Source: a virus. Taken from it: 64,000 nucleotides of DNA. The stretch spans positions 1-64,000 of IMG/VR virus record IMGVR_UViG_3300005529_000026; one strand, 5' to 3'. Both the position numbers and the translations under genes were made by a program. The notes under the pieces are model-generated. The model was not told the origin of the DNA and searched no databases. It saw only the letters and a list, made by a program, of their open reading frames with translations. Shown one piece after another: positions 4,545 to 63,610 of this stretch (position 1 is its first letter; each line of letters begins with the position of its first letter).

Positions 4545-4606
4545 GTGTTTTGCTTGTTTGCTTAGCCTTGTTGGTTGAGGACTAAATGCGTAGACAAAAA
4601 TAATGC

Positions 4607-4745: not shown

Positions 4746-5030
4746 ATGACTGAAATGAGAGACTTCAACAACATCAAGCAGTGGCTGCAACCCCTGCTGA
4801 CCGAAAGAAATCTGTCGGTCGAAAAGTTTGCAGAGGCTTGTGGGCTAGCACGGCCAACGATTTATCACTTCTTCACCGACCGCAGCCGACCCAGCGAACA
4901 GGTCATGGTGAAGATGTGTCAGGTGCTAGGGGTTCCCCTCGAAGAAGGCATGCGCCAGTACACCCCGCGCAGGCGTGGCCGTCCCAAAGGCAGCGGCGGG
5001 CTGGCAGAGCTACCCGTCCGGCAGCGATAA
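4746..5030 (+). CDS. XRE-family HTH regulator with C-terminal AT-hook
   Basis: LSVEKFAEACGLARPTIYHF...RSRPS; RRRGRPKGS. Confidence 0.85.
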   Translation: MTEMRDFNNIKQWLQPLLTERNLSVEKFAEACGLARPTIYHFFTDRSRPSEQVMVKMCQVLGVPLEEGMRQYTPRRRGRPKGSGGLAELPVRQR

Positions 5031-5357: not shown

Positions 5358-5385
5358 TTGACAAATGGAAAACAAGTGGTATAAT
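5358..5385 (+). promoter_or_regulatory. consensus sigma70 promoter
   Basis: TTGACA-16-TATAAT with extended -10 TG. Confidence 0.85.
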
Positions 5386-5421: not shown

Positions 5422-5453
5422 GGCCCGTCCAACGGCGGGCCTCCGTTTTCTTT
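5422..5453 (+). terminator. terminator/attenuator shortly after the promoter
   Basis: GGCCCGTC/GGCGGGCC stem then TCCGTTTTCTTT. Confidence 0.6.
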
Positions 5454-5629: not shown

Positions 5630-6388
5630 TTGAAGAAGCTTTTTGCTGTTTTGGTTCTAGCCGCCTGCCTTCTGGGTTGGGGCGGATGCAGTGGGCCTCT
5701 TGAGGTTCATCCGAACGGTTCGCCGCTGACTGCACGTAAGGTCGCTCCTCCGACACTGGGTGTTCAGGTGACGTACAGCGACGATGTGCGCCCTTGCACG
5801 TTCAGCATCACCACGACGCCGCAGGGCTGGTTTTACAAGAAAGACGGAGTGCCGTGCTACTGGGCACCCGGAGAGAACCTAGACCTGATGTTCAGGGTAG
5901 AGTTCGACAGCGCCGACAATATGTATGCCCCCGGTTGGTCGGTCATTGACCGCAGCAGCGGGGCGGTTGTGCAAGTTTTTACCACGTCAACCGTCCATAA
6001 ACCCGGCGACAGCAACATTCCTAATTACACGCTGCTTCCTGCCACGCTGCACGCGGGAGACACCTACATCATTCACAAAGGCGACGAAGACCCCGGACAC
6101 GCATGGGGCTTTGTCGTGACAGAGGAAACGATACACACACCTCTCTACACAGGGCCAGCGATTTGCGCTCAGTGGTGGGAAGGCGTTGACCCTTTTCCGG
6201 GTACATGGCCGCAGTTCCCAGAGATTCCGATTTATCAAGGTGACTCTGAGAAATACTGCTGGCGCGAAAAAGACCCGATTCCACTGCCTATGACGATTGA
6301 AGTGATTCACTTCGCGGCTGGCGGACACGATTACAACGGCGTGTTTGAGCCGAAGATGCTCTACCACGCAACTGCAATCGGTAGATAA
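5630..6388 (+). CDS. putative lipoprotein
   Basis: MKKLFAVLVLAACLLGWGGC signal with lipobox-like Cys. Confidence 0.65.
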   Translation: MKKLFAVLVLAACLLGWGGCSGPLEVHPNGSPLTARKVAPPTLGVQVTYSDDVRPCTFSITTTPQGWFYKKDGVPCYWAPGENLDLMFRVEFDSADNMYAPGWSVIDRSSGAVVQVFTTSTVHKPGDSNIPNYTLLPATLHAGDTYIIHKGDEDPGHAWGFVVTEETIHTPLYTGPAICAQWWEGVDPFPGTWPQFPEIPIYQGDSEKYCWREKDPIPLPMTIEVIHFAAGGHDYNGVFEPKMLYHATAIGR

Positions 6389-7213: not shown

Positions 7214-7407
7214 TCCCCGCAAGCGTAACTGCGGACATCAGCAAAATTGGTACATAGAGCGTGGTGGAAATCCGTTCGCGGGTGCGCACCCTAATCTGCC
7301 ATGCTCGTCTAATACGCGGTGTAGGTCGCAAGCCGAAGCCGCCAGTGAACGATAGAACGGACGCAACGCGGAGTGTTTCGTTCACTGCCATACATGAACA
7401 CAATGTG

Positions 7408-7450
7408 AACCCGGCTGAGTCGCATGAAGCGGCTTAGCCGGGTTTTCGTA
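7408..7450 (+). terminator. intrinsic terminator
   Basis: AACCCGGCTGAGTCGC/GCGGCTTAGCCGGGTT stem followed by T-rich tract. Confidence 0.65.
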
Positions 7451-7473
7451 TCTTTCGTATCTTTGGAGACATC

Positions 7474-7743
7474 ATGGCAAACGTTAGCTACAGCGAGCAG
7501 ATTTACTCGGCAGTCAGCGTGGTGGACGGTCTGGTGCGTGCATTCCCGGCGTCGAACGCTGATGGCAGCGCCAATCCCACTGCCCAGCTAAACGCTTTCA
7601 ATGCGTTCATTGATAGCGCAGTAGAGCAGGGCTTTTTTGTTCTTCCTGCTCCGTTCACGGTGACCGCACTCAAAGCGATTGCGCCGTCACTGCTCAAGAT
7701 TATCTCGGATTACAAGGTCGCAACTCAACGCCCTTCTCTGTAA
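7474..7743 (+). CDS. hypothetical protein
   Basis: GGAG SD, 89-aa ORF. Confidence 0.7.
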   Translation: MANVSYSEQIYSAVSVVDGLVRAFPASNADGSANPTAQLNAFNAFIDSAVEQGFFVLPAPFTVTALKAIAPSLLKIISDYKVATQRPSL

Positions 7744-18645: not shown

Positions 18646-18691
18646 AACGTAGACAAGCAACATTTACTGCACTCATAGGGAGTCATTCTAA

Positions 18692-19600
18692 ATGGCATTC
18701 ACTGCTATCACTGACATTGTTAACCCGGAGGTTCTGGCCGACCAGATTTCGGCCAAGTTCCCCGACATGCTAGTGCTTGGCAACAGCGGACTTGTGGAAG
18801 TTGATTCCACATTCCCGCTTGGTTCGCCGGGCACAAAATTCAAAATCCCCTTCTGGAAGCGCATTGGCACCTTCGCTGACCTAGCTGAAGGTACGCCGAT
18901 GACGCCGGGCAAAATCACGACTGGCGCTGAGTTCGCTACGGTTCTCCGTGGCGGTATGGCGCTGGAAGTGCTCGACACTGCTGAACTGGTGTCGAAGGCC
19001 GACCCGGTTGGCGAGATTGCAGACCAGCTTGCACGGCGTGCGGCTGAGTACATTGACGCGAAGCTGGTTACGGAGGTTGAGCACACGCCCAACACCTATA
19101 ATCAGGCGACGACCAACCTAGGCAGTAACGGCGGGTTGCTCGACCAGAACGTTGTCATCACCGCTTTGGTGAACACGTTGGGCGACAACTACGCTAAGGT
19201 TGTCAAGGGTGGCGTCATCGTCATGCACTCCAAGGTGTATGGCGACCTAGTGAAGACCGGCGCTATCCAGAACCAGTATCAGTCTGGTATGGACGTGATT
19301 CGCACCGGCGTGGTTCCCACCATCATGGGCCTGCCCATTCTGGTGAGCGACCTCGTGACTGTGGCTTCGGTCTCTAGCGTCAACCAGTACAACACTTACA
19401 TCATCGGCCCCGGCGCTCTGGCTCTGTTCTACCAGCGTCAGGTCATGGTGGAGTTCGACCGCGACATCCTGCTGCTGGCGGACATCATCTCCTCGAACGT
19501 GCATTTTGCTCCGCACCTGTTCGGTTGGGATTCCAACACCAGCGCTGTTGTGGCTGAGCAGAACAAGTCTATTCACGCTGTGGTTATCACCAGCAAGTAA
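18692..19600 (+). CDS. major capsid protein (HK97 fold)
   Basis: TDIVNPEVLAD, GTKFKIPFW, VIVMHSK, MGLPILVSD, VEFDRDI; followed by terminator. Confidence 0.92.
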   Translation: MAFTAITDIVNPEVLADQISAKFPDMLVLGNSGLVEVDSTFPLGSPGTKFKIPFWKRIGTFADLAEGTPMTPGKITTGAEFATVLRGGMALEVLDTAELVSKADPVGEIADQLARRAAEYIDAKLVTEVEHTPNTYNQATTNLGSNGGLLDQNVVITALVNTLGDNYAKVVKGGVIVMHSKVYGDLVKTGAIQNQYQSGMDVIRTGVVPTIMGLPILVSDLVTVASVSSVNQYNTYIIGPGALALFYQRQVMVEFDRDILLLADIISSNVHFAPHLFGWDSNTSAVVAEQNKSIHAVVITSK

Positions 19601-21294: not shown

Positions 21295-21323
21295 TTTCTC
21301 CGCACTCATAGGAGTTCTTCTTC

Positions 21324-21947
21324 ATGCCTCTAGTAACAAACGACGCAACAACACAGAAACCGATGTCGGCTGCGGGCGTTACAGGCGCACAGTCTATCAA
21401 ACTGATTCAGGCTCCCCGTATTTTTATGAAGTCAACGCCTGACAGCACGACTGGTGCTACTGTCCCGAATACTAAGTATGCGGGCAACGCCGCCAACCTT
21501 GTTGGTTGGACTGACCTCGGTAGCGTGGCCGGTAACGCGAAAATCGGTTACGAAAAGAAAATTAAGGAAGTCAAAACTGGTATTGACAACTATCTTCGCG
21601 CTGCATACAGCAACGAAAAGACCGGAAACATTGAGTTTAGCCTTAATCAGCTAGACGATGTTGTGATGAGCAAGATTCCGGGCCTGTCCGCTTCTGTGCA
21701 GACTGCTGGCTCGATTTACACGTTCCATCTTGGGCAGGAAGACCTTGTTCAGATGGCGCTGCTTGTCGTGGCCGTCAACAAGCTGGATGGTAAGGAACAT
21801 CAGTTCTACAGCCCCAGTGTCTACATGAACTTCACGTTTGCTGAAGATGCCGATGCGATGGTGCTCAAGTGCTCCGCGATTCTGCCCTTCTTCACCGTGA
21901 CGGGTCAAACCAGCGAAGACATTCTCGCGCATACGATTTTCAAATAA
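21324..21947 (+). CDS. major tail tube protein
   Basis: GWTDLGSV motif, 207 aa, upstream of chaperones and tape measure. Confidence 0.8.
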   Translation: MPLVTNDATTQKPMSAAGVTGAQSIKLIQAPRIFMKSTPDSTTGATVPNTKYAGNAANLVGWTDLGSVAGNAKIGYEKKIKEVKTGIDNYLRAAYSNEKTGNIEFSLNQLDDVVMSKIPGLSASVQTAGSIYTFHLGQEDLVQMALLVVAVNKLDGKEHQFYSPSVYMNFTFAEDADAMVLKCSAILPFFTVTGQTSEDILAHTIFK

Positions 21948-22043: not shown

Positions 22044-22580
22044 ATGGCCGACGAACAGATTGTTCCCACCCCTGAATCTACTCCTGAAGTAGCCCCCGCT
22101 CCTGAGCAGTCTTCTGCTCCCTCAACCCTGACCGAACACCAGATTATCCAAGCCGCTACCAACGACCCGCAGCTAGCAGAGGACGAGTTCCGTCTAGGTG
22201 ACCGCATCTTCAAAATCATTGACCTTGAATACGACGCTTATCTGAAGTTCGTACTTCTACTGAAGCCGTTCATCACCGCTGTTTTCGGTTTGATTTCCCA
22301 GAAAAGCAAAGTCGGAATTCCCGGCATCGAGCTATCCAACACATCATTCTCGGAAGATGCTTTGCTTGAGTATTGCGGAGTTAACCTGCCCGAAATGGCA
22401 CGTATAGTGTGCGCTTCCACTGACCCGGACATCACTGTTGATGACGTGAAGAAGCTGGGTAAAACACCTTTCAATCTCGCTAAGGTCGTGATGGCGCAAG
22501 TGCAGAGAAACAACATCATCAAGGACTTCACGGATTTTTTCGTACAGGCTCTCCCGATGCTAGGGATGACGGGCAAGTAG
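22044..22580 (+). CDS. tail assembly chaperone (gpG-like)
   Basis: AAGG SD, ATG 22044; between tail tube and tape measure. Confidence 0.8.
   Translation: MADEQIVPTPESTPEVAPAPEQSSAPSTLTEHQIIQAATNDPQLAEDEFRLGDRIFKIIDLEYDAYLKFVLLLKPFITAVFGLISQKSKVGIPGIELSNTSFSEDALLEYCGVNLPEMARIVCASTDPDITVDDVKKLGKTPFNLAKVVMAQVQRNNIIKDFTDFFVQALPMLGMTGK
22535..22541 (+). other. programmed -1 frameshift site T TTT TTC giving gpGT-like fusion
   Basis: X XXY YYZ heptamer in correct phase; -1 frame is open and continuous with ORF ending 22882. Confidence 0.8.
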
Positions 22581-31200: not shown

Positions 31201-33720
31201 CCCGTCGTCACTAGCGCGAGTGGCAAGATTCAGTCGCCCACGCAGGCGCTGTTTTCGTTCACAATTCCCAGCACGGATTACCAAGACATTTATCGTCTCG
31301 TAATTCGTCGCCTAGACAACACCGGCACGAACGCGGTTGAAACCGTGTACGACCAGTTGTGGGATGGCTTTACGTTCAAGCAGGTGAATCTGGTTGGCGT
31401 TCCGGGCGACCCGAACGGTAACCCGTTCACACAAAATGAGTGGTTTGACATCTCTACGGTGAACTTGCTGGGAGAGTTTGACACTCCGGTAAAGTTGCAC
31501 TTGACTGTTGCAGCGCCGGTCGTAACGGCGATTGCGATTGACCAAGACAACAACCTGATTGAATGGGATTGGACGGGACAAGCTGACTCGTTTGATTTAC
31601 AGATTGACTCAACCGGCACTGGCACTTTTACGACAAATGAGATTGACCTGACTGGGGCTAAAGGTCTGCTTGACCATACGCTCACGCTAGGTTCTAGACT
31701 TATTCGAGATGCGTTCGACATCCGCATTCGCGGAGTAAACGGCTTCGGAGTCGGTAACTGGCTCTCGCTTCACAGCGATGGCGTAGTGCCACAAAATGTT
31801 CTGAGCGCTCAGGTATCACAAGAAGGTCTAAACGTAGACGGTCACTGGTACAGTGTTCTGAATTTTGTCTGGACTGTTCCAACGTCGGACACACAGTTTG
31901 CAGGTATCAACATCTACGTCCGGCAGACTGCGCCCGGCCCGAACGGTGCTGGACAGTTCACAAGTCAATGGAAGTCGTTCTTGACCAAGCGTAAGGACGT
32001 TACGCAGTGGCGTGAGCGCCTAGAAAAAACCGGAGAGACGGTTCAGTTCGCTTTCGTCAGCTATGACAATGAAGGCTTTGAAAAGCGTATTGCGGTATCG
32101 CCGCAAGTTGGTGGAATCGTTCTAGATGCTCTAGATACGCCCCCCGCTATTCCTGTGGCCCTGAACGGTCGCGGCGAGGCCAAGCGGCACTTCATTCAGT
32201 GGAACGAGAATACCGAGACTGACATCGCCGGTTATGAGTTGTGGTCAGCGCCTGAAACTGAGGCGGCATTACCGCCCGGAGGCTCATGGACGCTCATCTA
32301 CACAACGCAAGCTGCGCCTAAGACGACTTCAGGGTTGCAAACGTACATCAACTCTGCAAAGCCTGACGAAGGGAAAAAGTACGCTGTTCGTGCGTTCGAT
32401 AAAGGGCAGAACTACTCCGGCTTTACGTCACCACTACTGATTCGAGCGCTGCTCGACATCTCTGATGGCGACAACCTGCTAGCAAACGGTAATTTTCAGC
32501 AATGGGATAGAACAGATGGTTCTGTTTCCGTGGCGACGTTTTATACGTTTACCGGAACCGGCACTGCTTCATTCCAAAGCAATGCTCACACTGGCGGCAA
32601 GTACGCACAGCAAATCGTCGCTGCGCCGGGGCAGACAGCGCGTATCACTTCATCTCTAGGAAAGATTAGCGCCGGGCAGATTTATATTGCTGGGCAGCTA
32701 ATCTGGGACAGCATCGTTGACGTTACAGCCGTTTCAGAGTTTGGGTGGAACTTCTATGATTACGCGGGAAACCTCGTAGCTACGTGTTCCACTGGCTTGA
32801 AGGGCACAGGATTCAACGGGCAAGCGCTCGGAGAGTATTACGTCTGGTTCATTGCGCCGCAAGCGAGTGATTCGGTTCTCAGCACGGCTACCGGTCAGTT
32901 CTCGATAAGCTGGTTGAGCGCCGTAACTCCTGTGTTCTGTTCGCTATATTCCGGCCTGAATAACGGCTCTGGAAGCACGTACACGCGGCAATATGGCAGG
33001 CTAGCTTTAGGGCAGGCTAAGAACGCAGCAACAAATGCTCCGTTCGGCACTCCTATCTCATCCACGGTTATTTTCACTCCCAGCACAACCTCGGTTAGTT
33101 GGAGCAGTGGAACTGTGGTAATGGGAGGCTCTCAATCGAGCTTGCAGACATACAGCGTCAACTCTGGCTCGTTTAGCCCGCTGACACAAGCGACAACGTA
33201 CATCGCGTATCTAGACTTCAAGACGTTACCAACGCCTACTGTGAAGTTCACCAGCAGCCTCAGCGGGCTGCAAGGCGATGCGAACGTTTTCCTAGGCGCG
33301 TTTACAACTGCTTTGACAACTCCTTCGGCCCCGACGTTGAACACGACGGCGCAAACCAGCGCTCCGAGTGCAACGTATTCGGTGAAGGTGCAGACGTGCT
33401 ATGCATTGACCCGCGATGCGGGTAGCGCATTGTCGGCTGCTGCCAGCGTTAACTGCTCTGCCGGGCAGACATTCATTGTGTCTCCTCCTTCCACAGGTGA
33501 TGCTCTTTACACGCACTACGACGTGTATGTGGGTGGATTGCTGGTAACGCCTTCTCCGATTCCGAAATCAATGGCGTACACGCACAACGCTTTGCTCAGT
33601 TCGTCCAATGACGGGACAGTGGTAGCCCCGGTTGGCTCGGTTGGCGGCGGCGGCAGTACAGGGCTAGGAGACGGTACGACAAAGCAGACGGTGTTTAGAG
33701 CGCCGTCCGGTGGCATGTAA
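28252..33720 (+). CDS. tail tip/central fibre protein with Fn3-like and carbohydrate-binding-like domains
   Basis: 1822 aa after tape measure; NNLLWSEDL and NLLANGNF CBM-like starts; WNENTETDIAGYEL...YAVRAFDKGQNYS Fn3-like. Confidence 0.85.
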   Translation: MLTFNITQGGVTRDYRKYIYGQPVKMDSKNDPKLLDFQLVPLDGSFVKPTRGAYVSITTDTYGLWYTGYITNDPELIYLGSKNNAPVWGYVLKATSDEYALNQQPLGIMPPFINTTQGEILRKLVQRLDPNGLFNPASIWDGQKVARYKVDPAKKFSDVVKEFSDSSNYTFWAKNHVLFFQQIDALSSPLTLNGNSKHFTPSNLRIAPSDDRIINDAIVLGDIEPQSLVREYHVSDGFTGRFPLSFAPYGVDSTLLLDDDFSNSAIDTQKWTVNDLPNNYLQVSNGYLNALGGPNDGTYSVHLDSASLIPLEGYLRLTHGEYDFVSASDGVIASIWSQSVNPALTGCVYGIKVNKSGANTVLNPIAGGSVDGGSSLTVNYAHRYIFRTIITSVKEQRLLNDYAYRNADGTIGRFSDGGSSAAVDVQTIITEIDPSTADIIGTTTWNHTVSLSSAQMYAYYVPVVTNDLHLSLTGITVSTPTQAQLSLLAKAANSPFYTGAYQAKVVGPNEIDSFDGQAPVATITDSNNGAVTRSSQLGTPQWNPGAAALTFFKNSINQTTDIPPTGTIIRLVYRRAGASVARVQAAASINAEAAAWGDSGIRSVTRNDLTPRPRNSRECEMAAGAIVNDRSYQHYTGTYTQHSGYEFSTEPTSGTLLKFLNMPASFPSVQAEEISSVRSTLLLAKKELIQHELTFNAPDRVRQLLTEFAKPTDVFTPQDTAEVPQYIEPTGVLGAAPDDVQALELASWTSTQLSFNTNVAAPSGGGFEVRWTDESWGADDAKNLITRTSSQTFNVPRVSRNSIIFVKAYDVRNNLLWSEDLTQAAWTKTQCNVTKTTETNPDGDKGIISTVNFNGGNVVAVVQQATSVAASGKQFAFSVSMKGAAGTSVTVRVSNGTTNVVNTSVPMTGNWMRKTFSGTFGAVSGNITVHLQYQGSPAYSLKVTRASLELRLTETVYCKTNSAVYGANSRFAAVSRVQFPLLAPVVTSASGKIQSPTQALFSFTIPSTDYQDIYRLVIRRLDNTGTNAVETVYDQLWDGFTFKQVNLVGVPGDPNGNPFTQNEWFDISTVNLLGEFDTPVKLHLTVAAPVVTAIAIDQDNNLIEWDWTGQADSFDLQIDSTGTGTFTTNEIDLTGAKGLLDHTLTLGSRLIRDAFDIRIRGVNGFGVGNWLSLHSDGVVPQNVLSAQVSQEGLNVDGHWYSVLNFVWTVPTSDTQFAGINIYVRQTAPGPNGAGQFTSQWKSFLTKRKDVTQWRERLEKTGETVQFAFVSYDNEGFEKRIAVSPQVGGIVLDALDTPPAIPVALNGRGEAKRHFIQWNENTETDIAGYELWSAPETEAALPPGGSWTLIYTTQAAPKTTSGLQTYINSAKPDEGKKYAVRAFDKGQNYSGFTSPLLIRALLDISDGDNLLANGNFQQWDRTDGSVSVATFYTFTGTGTASFQSNAHTGGKYAQQIVAAPGQTARITSSLGKISAGQIYIAGQLIWDSIVDVTAVSEFGWNFYDYAGNLVATCSTGLKGTGFNGQALGEYYVWFIAPQASDSVLSTATGQFSISWLSAVTPVFCSLYSGLNNGSGSTYTRQYGRLALGQAKNAATNAPFGTPISSTVIFTPSTTSVSWSSGTVVMGGSQSSLQTYSVNSGSFSPLTQATTYIAYLDFKTLPTPTVKFTSSLSGLQGDANVFLGAFTTALTTPSAPTLNTTAQTSAPSATYSVKVQTCYALTRDAGSALSAAASVNCSAGQTFIVSPPSTGDALYTHYDVYVGGLLVTPSPIPKSMAYTHNALLSSSNDGTVVAPVGSVGGGGSTGLGDGTTKQTVFRAPSGGM

Positions 33721-36343: not shown

Positions 36344-36374
36344 AATCTCATAATCGAATAACGATTTGCCCTTC

Positions 36375-36417
36375 AGGGGCGTAGCCGACGTGTATATCGC
36401 TGCGCCCCTATTGTTTT
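36375..36417 (+). terminator. terminator/attenuator hairpin downstream of promoter
   Basis: AGGGGCGTAGC/GCTGCGCCCCT + ATTGTTTT. Confidence 0.6.
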
Positions 36418-36428
36418 CGGGAGACCCT

Positions 36429-37580
36429 TTGACCAAGCGCCTTTCGCAAGAAGAAAAGACCAACCGGCTTATTGAACGCCTGAAGCTGGATAATGAACAG
36501 CTTCGTGCTCTCAATAAGAAGCTCAGTCGCAACCGTGGGATGGCATTTGAACAGGTCGTTGACCAGTTTAAGGAAGTCCTTTCGGGAGACGGGTTTAAGA
36601 ACTTCACGGTTAGGCCAGTTTACCTCCCCAAGCACAAGCCTCTTTCCAAGTCGGTGTTTGACGCCGACCACTCGGAAATTGCAACGCTCCTTTTGAGCGA
36701 CCTGCATTTCGGTGAGGACATCCGGCCTGAAGAATCAAACGGCATCAACAAATACAACTCTATCATCGGGGCAAACCGCCTCTGGCACGTTATAAGCAAA
36801 TTCAAGCGTATCGTTCGTGGGCACCAGTCAATGTACCGCGTCGAGAAGATTTGGGTTCCTATCCTAGGTGACCTAATTAGCGGTTCACATATTCCTGAAC
36901 TAGCGCTTACGAATGACTTGCTTGACGCTCCCAGCGCAGTGCTGGCTGCTCGTCTCCTCATCATCGCCATCATTGAGCTAAAGACATTAGGACTGCCCAT
37001 CGAGATTGACTGCATTGTGGGCAACCACGGTCGCATGCTTCTGAAGATGCCTGCCAAGCGGCAGGCAGAGCAGAGCTTCGATTGGATGGTGTACTGCATG
37101 CTTGAGCAAGAGTTTGCGAACGATTCACAAGTGAAAGTCCGAATCCACACCGGCCAGTTTGGAGTCGTGGAGCAATTCGGTCATCGCATTGTCATCGAGC
37201 ACGGCATCGCAGTAGCAAGCGGAAAAGAGCGCGAGCTTGAAAGCGCCATTCGAGACATCTTCGATAGCCCGATATATCGCAAGGCAACGAAGATGGAAGG
37301 AACATCCGTTGATTACGTCATCATTGGCAACATGCACCAAGCCAAGGATGGCGAGCGGTATATGGTCAATGGTTGTCTGCCCGGCTCGAACGAGTACGGC
37401 CTGTCCCTTCGACTAGACCCTATCGGCGCAATCCAGCAGATGTTCGGCATTAGCCGTAAGCGAATTCCTAGCTGGCATTACCCGCTCGATGTTTCGGATG
37501 TTCTTGACGGGGACGATGAAAACTCGATGGTGGAATTTGCAAAGCAGTTTATGGCGGTTCACGGTAGAGGCCGCCTCTAA
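36429..37580 (+). CDS. calcineurin-like metallophosphoesterase
   Basis: SDLHFG, LGDLISG, VGNHGR, EHG, GNMH motifs; GGGAG SD before TTG 36429. Confidence 0.88.
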   Translation: MTKRLSQEEKTNRLIERLKLDNEQLRALNKKLSRNRGMAFEQVVDQFKEVLSGDGFKNFTVRPVYLPKHKPLSKSVFDADHSEIATLLLSDLHFGEDIRPEESNGINKYNSIIGANRLWHVISKFKRIVRGHQSMYRVEKIWVPILGDLISGSHIPELALTNDLLDAPSAVLAARLLIIAIIELKTLGLPIEIDCIVGNHGRMLLKMPAKRQAEQSFDWMVYCMLEQEFANDSQVKVRIHTGQFGVVEQFGHRIVIEHGIAVASGKERELESAIRDIFDSPIYRKATKMEGTSVDYVIIGNMHQAKDGERYMVNGCLPGSNEYGLSLRLDPIGAIQQMFGISRKRIPSWHYPLDVSDVLDGDDENSMVEFAKQFMAVHGRGRL

Positions 37581-44565: not shown

Positions 44566-44818
44566 CCGCACTCGAATTGCCTTCGAGTTGAGAGACGAGC
44601 TTGGTGCTATAACGCTTGGTTGGGCTGGGTTTGTAATAGCCTTCGGGATTGCCGTACAGATGAGCCGGGCACGGAGTTGAGAACTCCTGATACGCGGCCT
44701 GTTCCCCGCACTGCTCACACGTCACAGGCTGCTCTCGTTCTTCCTCAGCCTGCCGGAACGTTGGGAAAAATCGCTCCGTGATGTGCCCCTTGAGGCATTT
44801 GTATTCGTGGATTGGCAC
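44558..44818 (-). CDS. FmdB-family zinc-ribbon protein
   Basis: MPIHEYKC..GH...CEQCG. Confidence 0.8.
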   Translation of the reverse strand: MPIHEYKCLKGHITERFFPTFRQAEEEREQPVTCEQCGEQAAYQEFSTPCPAHLYGNPEGYYKPSPTKRYSTKLVSQLEGNSSAVG

Positions 44819-44821
44819 GGT

Positions 44822-45130
44822 TTAAGCTCCGTCGTGCTCGTGGTCGTTGTTGTCTTGCGGCCCCGGCTCTGGGGGAGCAGGCGGTACAGCAGCCTGCTGG
44901 TTGCCGCTGGGAGGATGGGGTGCGGGAACAAATGCGCCGCCATCCGGGGTGAAAACGAAATCTCGGTCGGTAGGCAGCCCAACGTCCCTCTTAACGTACT
45001 GAAGAAAATCGTGGAATGCAGCGTTGGCTCGCTGAAACTCAGCAAAGGCAGCGTTGTTAGCGTCTGCTAGCTCTTTTAGTTTCTCCCGCGCTGCGGGCCT
45101 TATTTCGTATCGTTCTGTGGTGTTATCCAT
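44822..45130 (-). CDS. hypothetical protein
   Basis: start MDNTTERY at 45130. Confidence 0.55.
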   Translation of the reverse strand: MDNTTERYEIRPAAREKLKELADANNAAFAEFQRANAAFHDFLQYVKRDVGLPTDRDFVFTPDGGAFVPAPHPPSGNQQAAVPPAPPEPGPQDNNDHEHDGA

Positions 45131-53572: not shown

Positions 53573-53760
53573 TACCGATAAACTCCGGTTAACGCGAACT
53601 CCATGTCGGCTACTTCACCGACAGGTGTTACGAAATCATCAGCCGCCATGCCCTTGGCTTTCTCGTAGGCATCTTCGATGGACTTTGCCATCATCTCGAC
53701 GTAAATCGTTGCCTTTACTTCTGCTTGGATAAAGAACCTTTTCTGCTCTTGCTTTGCCAT
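53572..53760 (-). CDS. hypothetical protein
   Basis: AKSIEDAYEKA; coupled in operon. Confidence 0.6.
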   Translation of the reverse strand: MAKQEQKRFFIQAEVKATIYVEMMAKSIEDAYEKAKGMAADDFVTPVGEVADMEFALTGVYR

Positions 53761-54156
53761 TTATCGCGTGTCCTTCGCTTTCATGTACCGTGCAAACGGG
53801 TAAACGTGACGCTGAATGAGCAGACGGCCCATCTTCTCTCGCACCCGGTTATACAAGTCCACGAACTTGTCGTCTTTCAGTTCCTCTTGCGTGGGGTTGC
53901 GCCCGGTTGCAATGTCTGCAAAAAACGCGAACTCCGTTCCATTCAGCGCGACTTTCGCGCACACTTCCACATCCGCAAGGAAATCAACTAAAGTGGGTTT
54001 CACCACGCCAATTGCGTGACTTCCCCCTGTTCCTTCTAGCGCCCTCTCGTAGTTGATGGCTTGGTGACTTCCCGCTGTCCAGCGAGCTTCAACATACGTT
54101 GCCATCACTTCATCGAAAACTGAGCGCCAATAGAAGCGCTTACTGCCCTTAAGCAT
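53761..54156 (-). CDS. hypothetical protein
   Basis: 131-aa ORF in operon. Confidence 0.6.
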   Translation of the reverse strand: MLKGSKRFYWRSVFDEVMATYVEARWTAGSHQAINYERALEGTGGSHAIGVVKPTLVDFLADVEVCAKVALNGTEFAFFADIATGRNPTQEELKDDKFVDLYNRVREKMGRLLIQRHVYPFARYMKAKDTR

Positions 54157-54571
54157 TACGTGTTACTTTCGTTTCCCGTTTTTGAGGCTGCTTGGTGCCG
54201 TGTGGCCCATATCGCCTGTTTTTTGCTTTCCGTGTTACTCGTCCAACAACCCCGTAAACGTTCTCTCCCAAAGCCGCTGTCACCGTAGGATTTTCTAGGT
54301 AATCAGCCGCCCGTCGTAGCAACGCGGGGTTGTCTTTGAACGCTTCGAGCGCTCGGTTAATCTTCCAGTCAATGAAGCCGCGCACTAGCCCGGTCGCATG
54401 GTCATGGTCAACGACCAATCGCTTTGAGGGCTTTCCAGTTATGGCGCACACGCCTTTTTGGAACTTTAGAACTGCGTCATATTCCTCTGCTGTGATGTTG
54501 AACAGGAGCTTTAGACGCTGTGACCGCTTTCGCTCCGCTGCACTCTGCGAAGCCTTAGCCACTTTTGTCAA
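54149..54571 (-). CDS. endonuclease VII-like nuclease
   Basis: Q.GVCAI...LVVDHDHATGLVRG...N. Confidence 0.85.
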   Translation of the reverse strand: MTKVAKASQSAAERKRSQRLKLLFNITAEEYDAVLKFQKGVCAITGKPSKRLVVDHDHATGLVRGFIDWKINRALEAFKDNPALLRRAADYLENPTVTAALGENVYGVVGRVTRKAKNRRYGPHGTKQPQKRETKVTRNA

Positions 54572-54810
54572 CGATGAATGTCCACTACACGCCCTTGGTC
54601 GTCCAAGCGTAGGCCGTGCTTCGCTGCAAATTCTTCATCTGGTGCCCATCGCGCCACACTGCCGTCCGCATAAATAGTGACTAGAATGGTTTTCTTACCA
54701 GCCGTGTCCTTAGCAACGACATGAACGCCTTCTGGTGTGTGGGTGTTCCTTTCCAGATAAAGAAGAACTTCGTCAGTGTCCGGCAATACATCAACAAATC
54801 TCATGCTCAT
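54568..54810 (-). CDS. hypothetical protein
   Basis: 80-aa coupled ORF. Confidence 0.55.
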   Translation of the reverse strand: MSMRFVDVLPDTDEVLLYLERNTHTPEGVHVVAKDTAGKKTILVTIYADGSVARWAPDEEFAAKHGLRLDDQGRVVDIHR

Positions 54811-55097
54811 TCCGGTTCAACCTCTTTCAGAAAACCATCCACAACGAACACGGCGTACTTGATTACACCGCCGTGCCATACTCCGAAAAGAACCGCAGGT
54901 ACGCGCTTAGAGCGATAGTTCTTCTGCATGAACTCACGTAGCTCCTCAATGCCTTGCCGATGTTGTTCCCACACCGTTGCGCGGTTCTTCTCGCAAATTT
55001 CTACTCCGTCAATCACTTCTCCGAAGACACCTGTACGGATGCCTTGTTGGTCGGCCCATGATTTGCGCACACTTGTCCCTTGAAGGCCCGTCAGCAA
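54807..55097 (-). CDS. hypothetical protein
   Basis: 96-aa ORF, start uncertain. Confidence 0.45.
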   Translation of the reverse strand: MLTGLQGTSVRKSWADQQGIRTGVFGEVIDGVEICEKNRATVWEQHRQGIEELREFMQKNYRSKRVPAVLFGVWHGGVIKYAVFVVDGFLKEVEPE

Positions 55098-55110
55098 TGA
55101 GGGCGATTTG

Positions 55111-55143
55111 AAAGAAGGGGCGCTTCCGCCAAGAAAGCGCCCC
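55111..55143 (-). terminator. intrinsic terminator
   Basis: GGGGCGCTTTC/GGAAGCGCCCC + TTCTTT. Confidence 0.8.
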
Positions 55144-55193
55144 GTTTTGGCAGGGGACTACTGATGTCCCGCACTCATAGTCAGTTCAATCGT
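55111..55193 (-). ncRNA. candidate trans-acting small RNA (~80 nt)
   Basis: Bounded by promoter (55200-55228) and terminator (55111-55143); contains CUAUGAGUGCGG complementary to MCP and tail-tube leaders. Confidence 0.6.
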
Positions 55194-55199
55194 ATCTTT

Positions 55200-55228
55200 A
55201 TAATACCAAAGAACTAACTGCTTGTCAA
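55200..55228 (-). promoter_or_regulatory. sigma70-type promoter
   Basis: TTGACA-17-TATTAT with extended -10 TG; GTAGACA 10 nt upstream of -35. Confidence 0.85.
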
Positions 55229-55249
55229 GCACCGAGTCTGTCTACGCTT

Positions 55250-57163
55250 TTATACTTCTACAGTTTCGTTGCTTATGGCTGTGGTCGGCGGAATGGCTTT
55301 CTTGAGGGAAGCCAAGTCCTCCGGTGTGATTTCTCGTACTGTGCTGATGTTACCTTCCATCAACAACGTGCAGACGCCCCCCGGCGCGTATCTAGAAAGG
55401 TCTACGCGAACGAGCATCTGAGGTTCAAACGAGATTTCCTCGTCCATGAAGCCGTCGAAGTCGTTTTCTCGAATGTGTGCTTTGCGTTTTCTGTGCAAGC
55501 ACACCATCGCATCGCAGTCTTTCTCAATCTGGCTGGCACCATCTGCATTGTGTGCATCAACAATCTCGCCGTCACGAACCCGATTGGGCTGGACGATGCG
55601 GATGATGACGATTCCTAGCTCTACAGCTAGGGCTTTGAGCTTTTTGGAAATCTGCGACAAGTGAACCGTGCGGTTGTGCTGGCTTCGCAGGGTCATGTCG
55701 GCCAAAAGCTGTAAGTTGTCGAACACTACGAACTTTACGCCGTACCGACGGACGGCCTGCCGGATGGTGTCGTAAACATCATCCGGGGTTTGAACACGAG
55801 TGAAGGCGAACAGCAGGTCAGCAGGTCGTGTGCGGGCAATTTCCTTGGCCTTGGCTACGGCTGCCTTCATCTCGGCCAGCTTGCGAACCGCTTCTTCCGG
55901 GTCTTTGGCTGGCGAGTCGTCCGTCTTGGTCACGTAACTGGCCCATTTGCGGGCTAGACGTGCCGCCGTCATTTCTAGGCAGAACACCAGTGCAGGGTCT
56001 TGGTACTTGTCTACGATGTAGTCGGCCCAATTCAGCGCTAGCGTGGTTTTGCCGATTTTGGCCTGAGCGATGATGTCAATGACATCGCCCGGCTCGGCCC
56101 CACCCAGCTTGCGGTTGAGAGCCGCCCACGGCGTGTCGTACTTTGGCTTCAACGACTCCATGCCGTTCAACTCACGCTCAACCTCATCGAGCGCAGCAGG
56201 GGCGTTCATCACACCCTTAACGTCAAACGGCTTGGCCTGAGCCTTTAGGGTCTCGAATTCTTCCCTCGTGTGACCGGCCTTGAACCACTCGTTGATGTCC
56301 TTGCCCGGCTTGCCGTCAGCCGTTGTGAATTCCGGTAACAGGATGTTGCGGGCTTTCTCGATGCCGATGCGGGAGGCCATCTCACGCGCCGCTTCCTGCC
56401 CAACCTTGTCACGGTCGTAGAGCAGGAAGATTTCTTTGGGCTGAGCGTTATCGAGCTTGTCAATCCACTCGGCTTTCTTATTGTTAGCGCCGGGGATGCC
56501 GCAGACGTTCTCGTAGCCGTAGCTAGCCAGTGTGAGGGCATCAATCTCACCCTCGGTGAAGATGATTTCATCCATGCCGGACGTGATGACCGCATCGTTG
56601 AATAGCGGCTGCTCACGCCCTGAGACGTTGCGAAATTCCTTCTTCGCTGGCGGGATGGTACGGAACTTGGCGTAGATGAGGTTCCCGGCCCGGTTGTAGT
56701 AGGGGATGACAACCCACTTCTTGCCGCCGAATTCCTCTGAACCTAGCTTGAACTTTTCAATGACAGCCATTGACAGGCCGCGCTCGGCTACTAAGTAGTC
56801 TAGCGCTTCGCCATCGTCCATCAGCCTGCGATGGCATGCGTTCACGTCAGGTAGTGGCCCCGGTTGCTGGCCGTTTCCGGCCCAGCCCTGAACCGACATC
56901 ACCGCTTCGGGCTTGTTATCGCCCAGCGCTTCCTTCAACTGCCACAGATTGCCGCTACGTCCCTGCCCCTGATTGCAGATGAAGCAATGCCACAGCCCGT
57001 CTTCTTCGCCAGCGCCAACGTTGATGTAGAACTTGCCGCGCTCATCGCCGCATAGCGGGCACTTCTTCAGTACCGCCTTGTCTTTTCCACTCGGCTGAAA
57101 TTCCCATGTCTTGAGCATGACATATTCCAGCGCTCTAGATGGCGACTGTTCTGTTTCTATCAA
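55250..57163 (-). CDS. T7/Twinkle-type primase-helicase
   Basis: CPLC..CFIC zinc finger, TEGEIDA and YDRD TOPRIM, AKIGKTT, VFDNL, GASQIEKDCD. Confidence 0.95.
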   Translation of the reverse strand: MIETEQSPSRALEYVMLKTWEFQPSGKDKAVLKKCPLCGDERGKFYINVGAGEEDGLWHCFICNQGQGRSGNLWQLKEALGDNKPEAVMSVQGWAGNGQQPGPLPDVNACHRRLMDDGEALDYLVAERGLSMAVIEKFKLGSEEFGGKKWVVIPYYNRAGNLIYAKFRTIPPAKKEFRNVSGREQPLFNDAVITSGMDEIIFTEGEIDALTLASYGYENVCGIPGANNKKAEWIDKLDNAQPKEIFLLYDRDKVGQEAAREMASRIGIEKARNILLPEFTTADGKPGKDINEWFKAGHTREEFETLKAQAKPFDVKGVMNAPAALDEVERELNGMESLKPKYDTPWAALNRKLGGAEPGDVIDIIAQAKIGKTTLALNWADYIVDKYQDPALVFCLEMTAARLARKWASYVTKTDDSPAKDPEEAVRKLAEMKAAVAKAKEIARTRPADLLFAFTRVQTPDDVYDTIRQAVRRYGVKFVVFDNLQLLADMTLRSQHNRTVHLSQISKKLKALAVELGIVIIRIVQPNRVRDGEIVDAHNADGASQIEKDCDAMVCLHRKRKAHIRENDFDGFMDEEISFEPQMLVRVDLSRYAPGGVCTLLMEGNISTVREITPEDLASLKKAIPPTTAISNETVEV

Positions 57164-57457: not shown

Positions 57458-57610
57458 TCAGCCGATGAACAAGCAGCGTTGGCACTGCTCGGTGTGGCTC
57501 CAAAACAGAGCCACGGTTTCCATTCTGTGCCCAACAAACGGGCAGACGAGTGTGCCACAAACTACTGCTGCTAGTCGCTTCCACAAAGAGACATCCACAG
57601 GTAAACTCAC
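57458..57610 (-). CDS. small Zn-binding protein (50 aa, not in ORF track)
   Basis: CPFVGH...CQRC; GAGG SD and GTGA overlap. Confidence 0.6.
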   Translation of the reverse strand: MSLPVDVSLWKRLAAVVCGTLVCPFVGHRMETVALFWSHTEQCQRCLFIG

Positions 57611-58005
57611 GCGACCTCTGTAAGCTCAAACTGCCCGAATGGAATGGCGACGGCTCCATACAAAGCGTCCTTCATCGCTGCCGCACCATCTGCATTCCAC
57701 GAATGAATAACAACGTTTTCTCCGAGATAACGGCGTCCCGCCAAATACTTAGCCACTTGAAAACCAGTTCCTTGAGGGCACGTCCCATCAGCATGAAGAA
57801 CTCCTAGGTCGTGGTCTAGGAATACGATGTCAAACGGTTGAGGGGAACGTGCAATGACCTCAATCGCTTCGTCGGCTGTTTGAACGAGTGTGAGATTGCT
57901 GACACGCTGCTTAAACCACGCAATGCGGTTGTCGCTGTCTTCCAGCAGGAGCACACGAGCGCCGCGTGGAATTTTTATCTGCACGTTCAATTTCTTTCTC
58001 GACAT
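57607..58005 (-). CDS. cyclic-phosphate-processing receiver-like domain protein
   Basis: LLLED..R, VFLDHDLG, TGFQVA, VIHSWN..GA..M. Confidence 0.85.
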   Translation of the reverse strand: MSRKKLNVQIKIPRGARVLLLEDSDNRIAWFKQRVSNLTLVQTADEAIEVIARSPQPFDIVFLDHDLGVLHADGTCPQGTGFQVAKYLAGRRYLGENVVIHSWNADGAAAMKDALYGAVAIPFGQFELTEVA

Positions 58006-61662: not shown

Positions 61663-61752
61663 TGGTGGGGGCGGGAGGAATCGAACCTCCATTCCCCGTA
61701 GGGGAGGCGGTTTTACAGACCGCTGGACTTAGCCAGTTCGTCCATCACCCCC
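61663..61752 (-). tRNA. tRNA-Tyr(GTA)
   Basis: GGGGGTG/CGCCCCC-ACCA, GCGGT-CTGTAAA-ACCGC, long variable arm, GGAGG-TTCGATT-CCTCC. Confidence 0.93.
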
Positions 61753-63260: not shown

Positions 63261-63610
63261 GGCGGGCATTGCACCCCGCCAAGGGCGTTGAGGAACTGAG
63301 TCGCCGTCACTCAGTGCGTTAGCTGCTGATTAAGCAGCCGCCGCAGCCATAGCCAAAGGCTTGGCAGTTGTTTTTGTCCGCTGATTACGTCAGTCGGCTC
63401 ACGGATTCGTCCATAGCACCTTCAACCAACCCGTCGAAACTTGGCACGCCCATCAAAGCCGCTCAGCCCATCTATCGCATGATGGCAGTCCCTAGAAGCA
63501 CAGGTGCGCTTAACTGTCCGGGTCTGTTGTTCTGAGCGGCTATGGTGGACGTGGCGGGCATCGCAGCCCGCGTCCGAATCGGTAAAGCACTACTTCATAC
63601 GAATCAATCT
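63261..63610 (-). ncRNA. ssrA: circularly permuted (two-piece) tmRNA
   Basis: Acceptor piece ending CACGTCC-ACCA (63543) lies upstream of 5' piece GGGCGTG..TTTCGACGG (63451); G3.U70; tag AKPLAMAAAAA* at 63365-63330. Confidence 0.9.

Follow-up and report, generated by a model that had tools for sequence, protein, structure and literature searches.

A candidate small RNA of an uncultured soil phage, predicted to pair with a tag common to the capsid and tail-tube leaders

Introduction

Phages are mostly understood to control their late genes at the level of transcription, by means of sigma factors, activators and antitermination. The locus described here, located behind the primase/helicase gene of a soil phage, raises questions about a further level of control: is the short unit found there, in which a promoter is closely followed by a terminator, the gene of a small regulatory RNA (sRNA)? 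Could such an RNA act in trans on the mRNAs of the major capsid and tail-tube proteins, whose leaders have in common a sequence to which it would be complementary? Or is the unit only the leader of the operon that follows it, and the complementarity a coincidence? The case is a prediction from sequence only, for an uncultured phage without close relatives. If true, it would imply a post-transcriptional layer balancing or timing the virion components, based on a simple seed-and-tag pair that is amenable to testing, in which the leader tag would be the common "address" of a phage post-transcriptional regulon.

The phage and its genome

The stretch of DNA analysed (hereafter, the window) is the first 64 kb (64,000 nucleotides) of the IMG/VR record of an uncultured soil phage, which comprises 94,356 bp in full and is 100% complete according to CheckV. 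A plus-strand gene block at ~5.6-42.1 kb includes the genes of the portal, the major capsid protein (MCP), the tail tube and the tape measure, and the remaining genes are on the minus strand, where DNA polymerase I, helicases, the primase/helicase, RNR, a UvsX-like recombinase and endonuclease VII are encoded. The best homologue of the primase among 5.8 billion proteins is 60% identical, no relatives of the MCP were found in GTDB genomes, and the sRNA locus gave no match in the phage database. Near-identical pieces of the phage are present in three mine-metagenome runs (2024) and in one soil run (2017), probably its source, which means that the same phage was present in two studies; the pieces from the three mine-metagenome runs leave out 54.7-55.3 kb, so that the sRNA locus is outside their coverage and they reveal no variation in it.

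With respect to the host, the Rfam matches in the window are a permuted (two-piece) tmRNA of 83 bits (63330-63605, minus strand) and two tRNAs (46-118 and 61667-61751, both on the minus strand), and a two-piece tmRNA points to an alpha- or betaproteobacterial or to a cyanobacterial host. Beyond the primase/helicase gene, the product of 57607-58005 (minus strand) contains a cyclic-phosphate processing receiver domain (PF20274, E 2.5e-13), which fits the RNA-repair gene set that the sequence-only reading had noted further along the arm.

A promoter-terminator unit behind the primase/helicase gene

The sequence-only reading of this DNA had placed a minus-strand promoter at this locus (TTGACA, a 17-nt spacer and TATTAT), followed by a terminator, and both are borne out (Table 1). 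The promoter scores 11/12 and is the best promoter match in 50-64 kb, and the hairpin at 55143-55117, followed by UUCUUUC, is the strongest match of its kind in 50-64 kb. This terminator doubles as the end of the primase/helicase operon; its U-tail is interrupted, which counts against the sRNA interpretation. When promoters of at least 10/12 with a terminator within the next 80 nt were searched for, only two such units appeared in the 94-kb genome, the candidate being one of them.

The unit thus described has what characterises the sRNA class in silico, that is, a promoter of its own and an intrinsic terminator around a short non-coding transcript, and the candidate RNA folds better than shuffles (z -2.8). 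It belongs to no Rfam family, and its longest open reading frame, of six codons and lacking a Shine-Dalgarno (SD) sequence, is probably incidental, with no coding potential detected in the unit beyond it. Apart from the hairpins listed in Table 1, an alternative hairpin CCCU..GGGG (55155-55140, 5 pairs) overlaps both of the others. What would be transcribed from the opposite strand? Read on the plus strand, the hairpin is a terminator just upstream of the copy of the tag that lies here (site 3), and there is no promoter between the two, so a plus-strand (sense) RNA is unlikely.

Table 1. Coordinates of the candidate unit, its predicted targets and associated features (positions in the window, except for the last row, which refers to the whole genome).
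Feature	Position	Strand	Remarks
Primase/helicase gene	55250..57163	-	its 3' untranslated region houses the candidate sRNA unit
-35 hexamer TTGACA	55223..55228	-	TAGACA box 10 nt upstream (55244-55239)
Extended -10 (TGg TATTAT)	55200..55208	-	start predicted near 55193 from spacing alone
Seed 5'-CUAUGAGUGCGGG-3'	55168..55180	-	+14 to +26 of the predicted RNA; single-stranded in the centroid fold
Small hairpin GGGAC / 7-nt loop / GUCCC	55154..55170	-	5' arm overlaps the final 3 seed bases
Intrinsic terminator	55110..55143	-	11-bp stem, 8 G-C pairs, 5-nt loop, UUCUUUC tail
Six-codon mini-ORF (AUG..UAG)	55158..55178	-	within seed and hairpin, no SD
Candidate target 1, capsid leader tag	18667..18678	+	-25 to -14 from ATG 18692; SD GGGAGU 18678-18683
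Candidate target 2, tail-tube leader tag	21299..21311	+	-25 to -13 from ATG 21324; anti-SD CUCC 21298-21301; SD GGAG 21311-21314
Major capsid protein (MCP)	18692-19600	+	PHROG 544/247, major head protein
Tail tube	21324-21947	+	Phage_TTP_17-like; feature score 0.96, TM 0.68
(G)TAGACA boxes, window	4591, 5344, 5594, 9993, 18650, 27957, 36285, 37585	+	plus 55244 (-)
(G)TAGACA boxes, genome	65839, 66830, 82801, 87545, 90290, 90532	-	

Copies of the tag and their placement

The core of the tag is the 10-mer GCACTCATAG, which had been reported to occur three times. Counting in the window and in the whole 94,356-bp record confirms exactly 3 copies, at 18669, 21302 and 55171, all of them on the plus strand. 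Is this number surprising in itself? The expectation of 0.08 for the 10-mer holds only for a 10-mer picked beforehand, and as many as 557 10-mers reach at least three same-strand copies genome-wide, against 139 in shuffles. Within the intergenic DNA (~18 kb) there are 17 triple 10-mers against 3.1 in shuffles, most of the 17 corresponding to tRNA arms, the GTAGACA box or promoter pieces. The one-mismatch copies of the tag 10-mer show no excess either (7 found, 3.6 expected), and those placed are coding sequence. A triple 10-mer is therefore unremarkable as a count, and its significance depends on the placement of the copies; the post hoc selection, with ~3 intergenic triple 10-mers expected by chance, is an argument against the sRNA interpretation.

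Regarding this placement, the pair of leader copies is real: the two most abundant virion genes each have one immediately before their SD, and relatives keep the element. As for site 3, its plus strand reads CCCGCACTCATAG and agrees with the relatives' family consensus at 13/13 positions. By our own arithmetic, the chance of a 13-nt consensus match in ~18 kb of intergenic DNA, considering both strands, is ~2 in 1000, and the antisense placement inside one of two ~85-nt units contributes a further chance factor well below 0.05; this third copy is probably non-random. A near copy at 7664-7675 (11/12) is inside a small ORF starting at 7474 and was treated as chance.

Complementarity to the capsid and tail-tube leaders

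The pairing that had been claimed for the two leaders withstands a base-by-base check: 55180-55169 pairs with 21300-21311 at 12/12 positions, to which a G.U with 21299 can be added, and the seed pairs with 18667-18678 through 11 Watson-Crick pairs and 1 G.U. In the whole genome, apart from the tail-tube site itself, nothing offers the tail-tube leader a longer contiguous complement than the seed (13 bp), and for the capsid leader the seed is the second-longest, after the antisense strand of the tail-tube site itself, and the best outside the late arm. When 151 start regions were ranked by duplex energy, the tail tube came 1st and the capsid 3rd (rank 2 is a doubtful ORF), and 0/3000 dinucleotide shuffles of the 5' 32 nt matched the observed energy on either leader. 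An accessible seed, complementary to initiation regions beyond chance, is another property of the sRNA class that the candidate has in silico.

The leader hairpins and the accessibility of the SD

Both target leaders had been described as having sequestered ribosome-binding sites (RBS). The hairpins exist as claimed, but "sequestered" overstates structures of only -4 to -7 kcal/mol. The hairpin of the tail-tube leader (CUCC/GGAG, with a 9-nt loop) has -4.4 kcal/mol and is no better than shuffles, and that of the capsid leader (ACUC/GAGU plus CAUUUA/UAAAUG) has -7.3 kcal/mol and a z of -2.2. These weak hairpins, with the tail-tube one at shuffle level, speak against the sRNA interpretation. Across the family, GG in the SD is a possible partner of the YCC upstream, and ACUC/AUUC within the tag can pair with GAGU, so that the conserved tag unit has the look of a small anti-SD hairpin whose loop is conserved. 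With the tag kept single-stranded, the modelled SD accessibility goes up 7- to 900-fold, depending on the leader and the modelling window, and the modelled probability of a free SD passes from ~0.001-0.003 to ~0.02-0.6 with the tag open, again by leader and modelling window.

Conservation of the tag in related phages

Related phages, with capsid proteins 58-72% identical, retain the tag element in capsid and tail-tube leaders, with the consensus CCCGCAYTCATAR followed by GGAGT. Two of them (G001 and L009) have CCCGCATTCATAAGGAGT ahead of both the capsid and the tail-tube genes, and another one (G002) has GGCACTCATAAGGAGT ahead of the capsid gene only. Weaker versions of the tag were found in G003, G004, L012 and L014, and the tag is absent from G010, L222 and L235. 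Judging from these comparisons, the target tag is under selection. The C-to-T difference that distinguishes the leaders of G001 and L009 would still pair with the seed of this phage as a G.U.

G001 contains the exact 12-mer CCGCACTCATAG a third time, at 22170-22181, on the late-gene strand and in the sense orientation, ~80 nt into a transcript predicted from an 11/12 plus-strand promoter. This copy is unpaired, lies immediately 5' of a strong hairpin and is upstream of a small membrane-protein ORF, after which comes an exonuclease/phosphoesterase gene, the homologue of the gene at 36366-37580 of the window. The seed of this phage pairs over 12-13 nt with 3/3 of the G001 sites. Moreover, the sense copies are all in mRNA sense, and the sole antisense copy is in a unit that is read in the opposite direction. 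The third G001 copy fits a conserved seed with several sense targets, and it equally fits a protein that reads the tag.

The 8-mer CGTATCTT is common to the sequence 10 nt downstream of site 3, to the sequence after the hairpin by the third G001 copy and to 7447/7456, which is marginal (~0.04 by estimate). A plus-strand region of the window (7214-7465) has ~230 nt of apparently non-coding sequence, which ends in a 17-bp hairpin (7407-7445); after this hairpin there is a tandem TCGTATCTT repeat, and then the SD of the small ORF that starts at 7474. No Rfam match was obtained at 7214-7465.

The search for the RNA gene in relatives

Do the relatives that keep the tag also keep the RNA gene? Except for G002, which is a complete genome, the tag-bearing relatives are partial contigs without the replication arm, and G001 in particular is a 35-kb partial contig that ends ~3 kb before the expected primase region. 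The complete genome of G002 has no convincing antisense copy of the tag: the look-alikes at 31480, 45635 and 76891 are coding sequence or a gene start, that at 90056 is unplaced, and their total is near the chance expectation. Since G002 keeps the capsid tag without an antisense copy, the tag can persist without such an RNA.

After the primase gene, no homologue of the sRNA gene was found in at least 60 relatives (12 loci from IMG/VR and 56 from metagenomes), and the seed is never there. A search of IMG/VR for the pattern TTGACA-N34-60-seed returned 90 matches, of which the best-ranked by promoter score all look random, and the 17-mer target pattern returned only the known relatives and chance matches (e.g., L118/L119/L126, which combine a gene end and an SD). 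The slot 3' of the primase gene varies among relatives, and the seed is absent from the versions of L055, L056, L093 and G002. In L056, a TAGACA-N10-TTGACA-N17 promoter is directly before the next gene, without terminator or seed; in L055 and L093, the primase/helicase gene is followed by a promoter, a ~100-nt structured RNA and a terminator; and in G002, by a promoter and ~350 nt of non-coding DNA (L039, which corresponds to G002 44720-45100). The post-primase slot may be where phages commonly keep regulatory RNAs, the sequences found there in these relatives being unrelated to that of the candidate.

The second unit, the control region and the TAGACA boxes

The other promoter-terminator unit of the genome (5358-5455, plus strand) starts with a perfect 12/12 promoter (5358-5385), followed by a ~60-nt RNA in which the loop of the first hairpin exposes CCUCC, an anti-SD-like sequence, and the terminator is at 5422-5441 (fold z -3.95). 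More hairpins come after it, up to the first structural-arm gene at 5630. This second unit may serve as a late leader under antitermination control or encode an anti-SD sRNA. Close to it, in the divergent control region between the polymerase and the structural arms, the ORF 4746-5030 (plus strand) would encode a small HTH regulator (XRE/Cro-like by eye), around which 8 sigma-70-like promoters were found against 2.0 expected (4.4-8.7 kb).

The (G)TAGACA boxes listed in Table 1 are found 2-6 nt past stop codons, each of them oriented like the transcription around it. Those at 4591, 55244 and 66830 are 10 nt ahead of a TTGACA -35 hexamer, and the complete TAGACA-N10-TTGACA-N17 layout is present at 4591 (+) and 66830 (-), as well as after the primase gene in the relatives L055 and L056. 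Overall, the number of TAGACA occurrences (48, with 40 expected) shows no enrichment.

Alternative explanations

The genes downstream of the candidate unit have no promoter of their own, so that the terminator must leak or be overridden, and the unit may be mainly an attenuated leader. Taken to its full extent, this explanation would make the unit an operon leader or 3' UTR only: transcription from the 55228 promoter would reach the genes from orf96 up to endonuclease VII past a terminator that leaks or is antiterminated, as in lambda PR'-tR', the short RNA would be a by-product, and the tag would be a cis anti-SD mini-hairpin, perhaps bound by a protein, whose mirror at site 3 is coincidental. 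Several of the observations above agree with it in addition to the missing promoters, namely, that the second unit heads the structural arm, such units looking like a general control device, that the L056 promoter directly precedes the next gene with neither terminator nor seed, that G002 retains the tag without its antisense copy, and that the CCCU..GGGG hairpin overlaps both other hairpins. However, it requires the match at site 3 to be a coincidence (~2 in 1000, times the factor well below 0.05) in the face of a pairing that was equalled in 0/3000 shuffles, and being a by-product does not keep an RNA from acting in trans, StxS being an example (PMC7547250). We regard this explanation as a real, if rather unlikely, possibility.

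The tag could also work as DNA, being a direction-independent site (operator or roadblock) for a phage protein, which would bind it in both late leaders and also behind the early promoter, at +14. In line with this, every copy, in either phage, is found on one and the same DNA strand, and the phage encodes the HTH regulator at 4746-5030, according to a by-eye reading of its translation. Nevertheless, the site has neither dyad nor direct-repeat symmetry, the late-leader copies are 13-25 nt before the ATG, where there is no promoter to control, the conservation continues unbroken into the SD, a feature of the RNA level, and the neighbours of site 3 lack matches to DNA-binding domains; such a role is improbable. 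A reversal of the logic is conceivable too, whereby the abundant late leaders would pair with the nascent 55180-55168, melt GGGAC/GUCCC and favour CCCU..GGGG over the terminator, turning on the endonuclease VII operon late. The three hairpins do overlap as in an attenuator, and endonuclease VII has a packaging-time function, a role taken from T4 gp49, but the alternative hairpin has 5 pairs against an 11-bp terminator and we know of no precedent, which leaves this arrangement as highly improbable. Two promoter readings of the tag were rejected. A T7-type promoter, suggested by the resemblance of the tag to CACTATAGGGAGA, finds no PF00940 polymerase in the genome, though control genomes gave none either, and it was dropped, since transcription starting within the tag would cost the mRNA its conserved SD as well; the sigma-70 or late -10 reading is at odds with the distance to the upstream AT-rich or TAGACA boxes, which varies across sites and relatives.

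Proposed mechanism

The interpretation that we prefer, and to which we give an even chance, is that the unit encodes a trans-acting phage sRNA that tunes the capsid and tail-tube proteins together. Such a co-regulator had been proposed in the sequence-only reading, and part of the proposal stands (the sRNA anatomy, the complementarity and the conserved target tag), whereas no homologue of the RNA gene was found in the relatives and the hairpins are weak. The analysis shows the sequence, the geometry, the complementarity with its statistical excess and the conservation of the target tag; the production of the RNA, its pairing in vivo and the sign of its effect are inferred from these.

According to this model, the host sigma-70 RNA polymerase would start at ~55193 on the minus strand and stop at the terminator (55143-55110), giving rise to an ~83-nt RNA within the 3' UTR of the primase/helicase operon, from a promoter of its own and with a terminator common to the operon. 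Its first ~25 nt, predicted to be unstructured, would bear the seed CUAUGAGUGCGGG, whose pairing partner in trans would be the conserved tag CYGCACUCAUAG. This tag, in turn, would form the loop and the 5' arm of a small SD-sequestering hairpin just upstream of GGAG in the capsid and tail-tube mRNAs, and in this way one early-arm RNA would co-tune the translation of the two most abundant virion proteins.

Would the RNA activate or repress? We lean slightly towards activation through the opening of the anti-SD hairpin, because the complementarity stops exactly at the SD, and repression by a steric block would be nearly as likely. Activation would also be in agreement with a target made of the loop and the anti-SD arm, with the rise in modelled SD accessibility and with the third site of G001, which is too distant from the start codon for a ribosome block; repression would agree with the weakness of the hairpins and with a duplex that ends at -13 from the AUG, within the usual 30S footprint. 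A more specific version, which we put forward tentatively and hold to be rather unlikely, is that a replication-arm sRNA of a lytic phage licenses virion production: the seed would invade the loop and anti-SD arms, switching on the translation of the capsid and the tail tube together, and a third late-arm 5' UTR would also be targeted in relatives.

Comparison with known systems

To what extent does the candidate resemble RNAs that are already known? The RNA c4 of P1/P7 (RF01695) is a short phage RNA that acts in trans, via short seeds, on the phage's own mRNA beside the RBS. The candidate is likewise a short phage RNA with a short seed, directed to mRNAs of its own phage next to the RBS. Unlike c4, which is processed from the operon it controls and has a single target (icd-ant), in immunity, where it occludes the RBS, the candidate has its own promoter, would have two separate late virion mRNAs as targets and would pair up to a point before the SD. 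A search of 53671-56680 with the Rfam models, c4 included, returned no match at E<=1, and in the window c4 did not reach the gathering score either.

Host-encoded systems provide other parallels. In the anti-antisense activators (DsrA/RprA on rpoS, RNAIII on hla and GlmZ on glmS), the SD is freed once the seed occupies the anti-SD arm, and DapZ and MicL are 3'-embedded sRNAs, with their own promoter in the 3' end of an upstream operon and the terminator in common with it. The layout of the candidate is that of DapZ and MicL, and its mechanism, if it is an activator, would be of the DsrA/RNAIII/GlmZ type, with the difference that the inhibitory structures opened by the host anti-antisense sRNAs are far more stable than leader hairpins of only -4 to -7 kcal/mol.

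Further phage RNAs with a trans-acting role in the regulation of their own phage have been reviewed (PMC12197685). [quoted passage not shown] As in such lambdoid leaders, the promoter of the candidate is closely before a terminator, the RNA is short and an operon follows. StxS is lambdoid, subject to Q antitermination, Hfq-binding, experimentally characterised and directed to stx1B and host rpoS (PMC7547250), unlike the candidate, which is predicted, would target virion genes and has no sequence relation to it. An adjacent Q-type antiterminator and a late-operon position were looked for and not found, the unit being in the replication arm with neighbours that lack Pfam matches. The control of virion protein mRNAs by RNA has precedents as well: STnc6030, from the prophage BTP1, is a base-pairing RNA that acts on the tailspike mRNA as a cis-antisense with long complementarity (PMC12197685), and CisR is a host-encoded sRNA that acts on the mRNA of the CTXphi major coat protein, cep (PMC13250501). 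Both are like the candidate in this respect, and neither of them co-targets two structural genes via one common leader tag. Trans-acting phage RNAs and virion-mRNA control are, therefore, already known; what would be new is one seed for a tag common to the capsid and tail-tube leaders.
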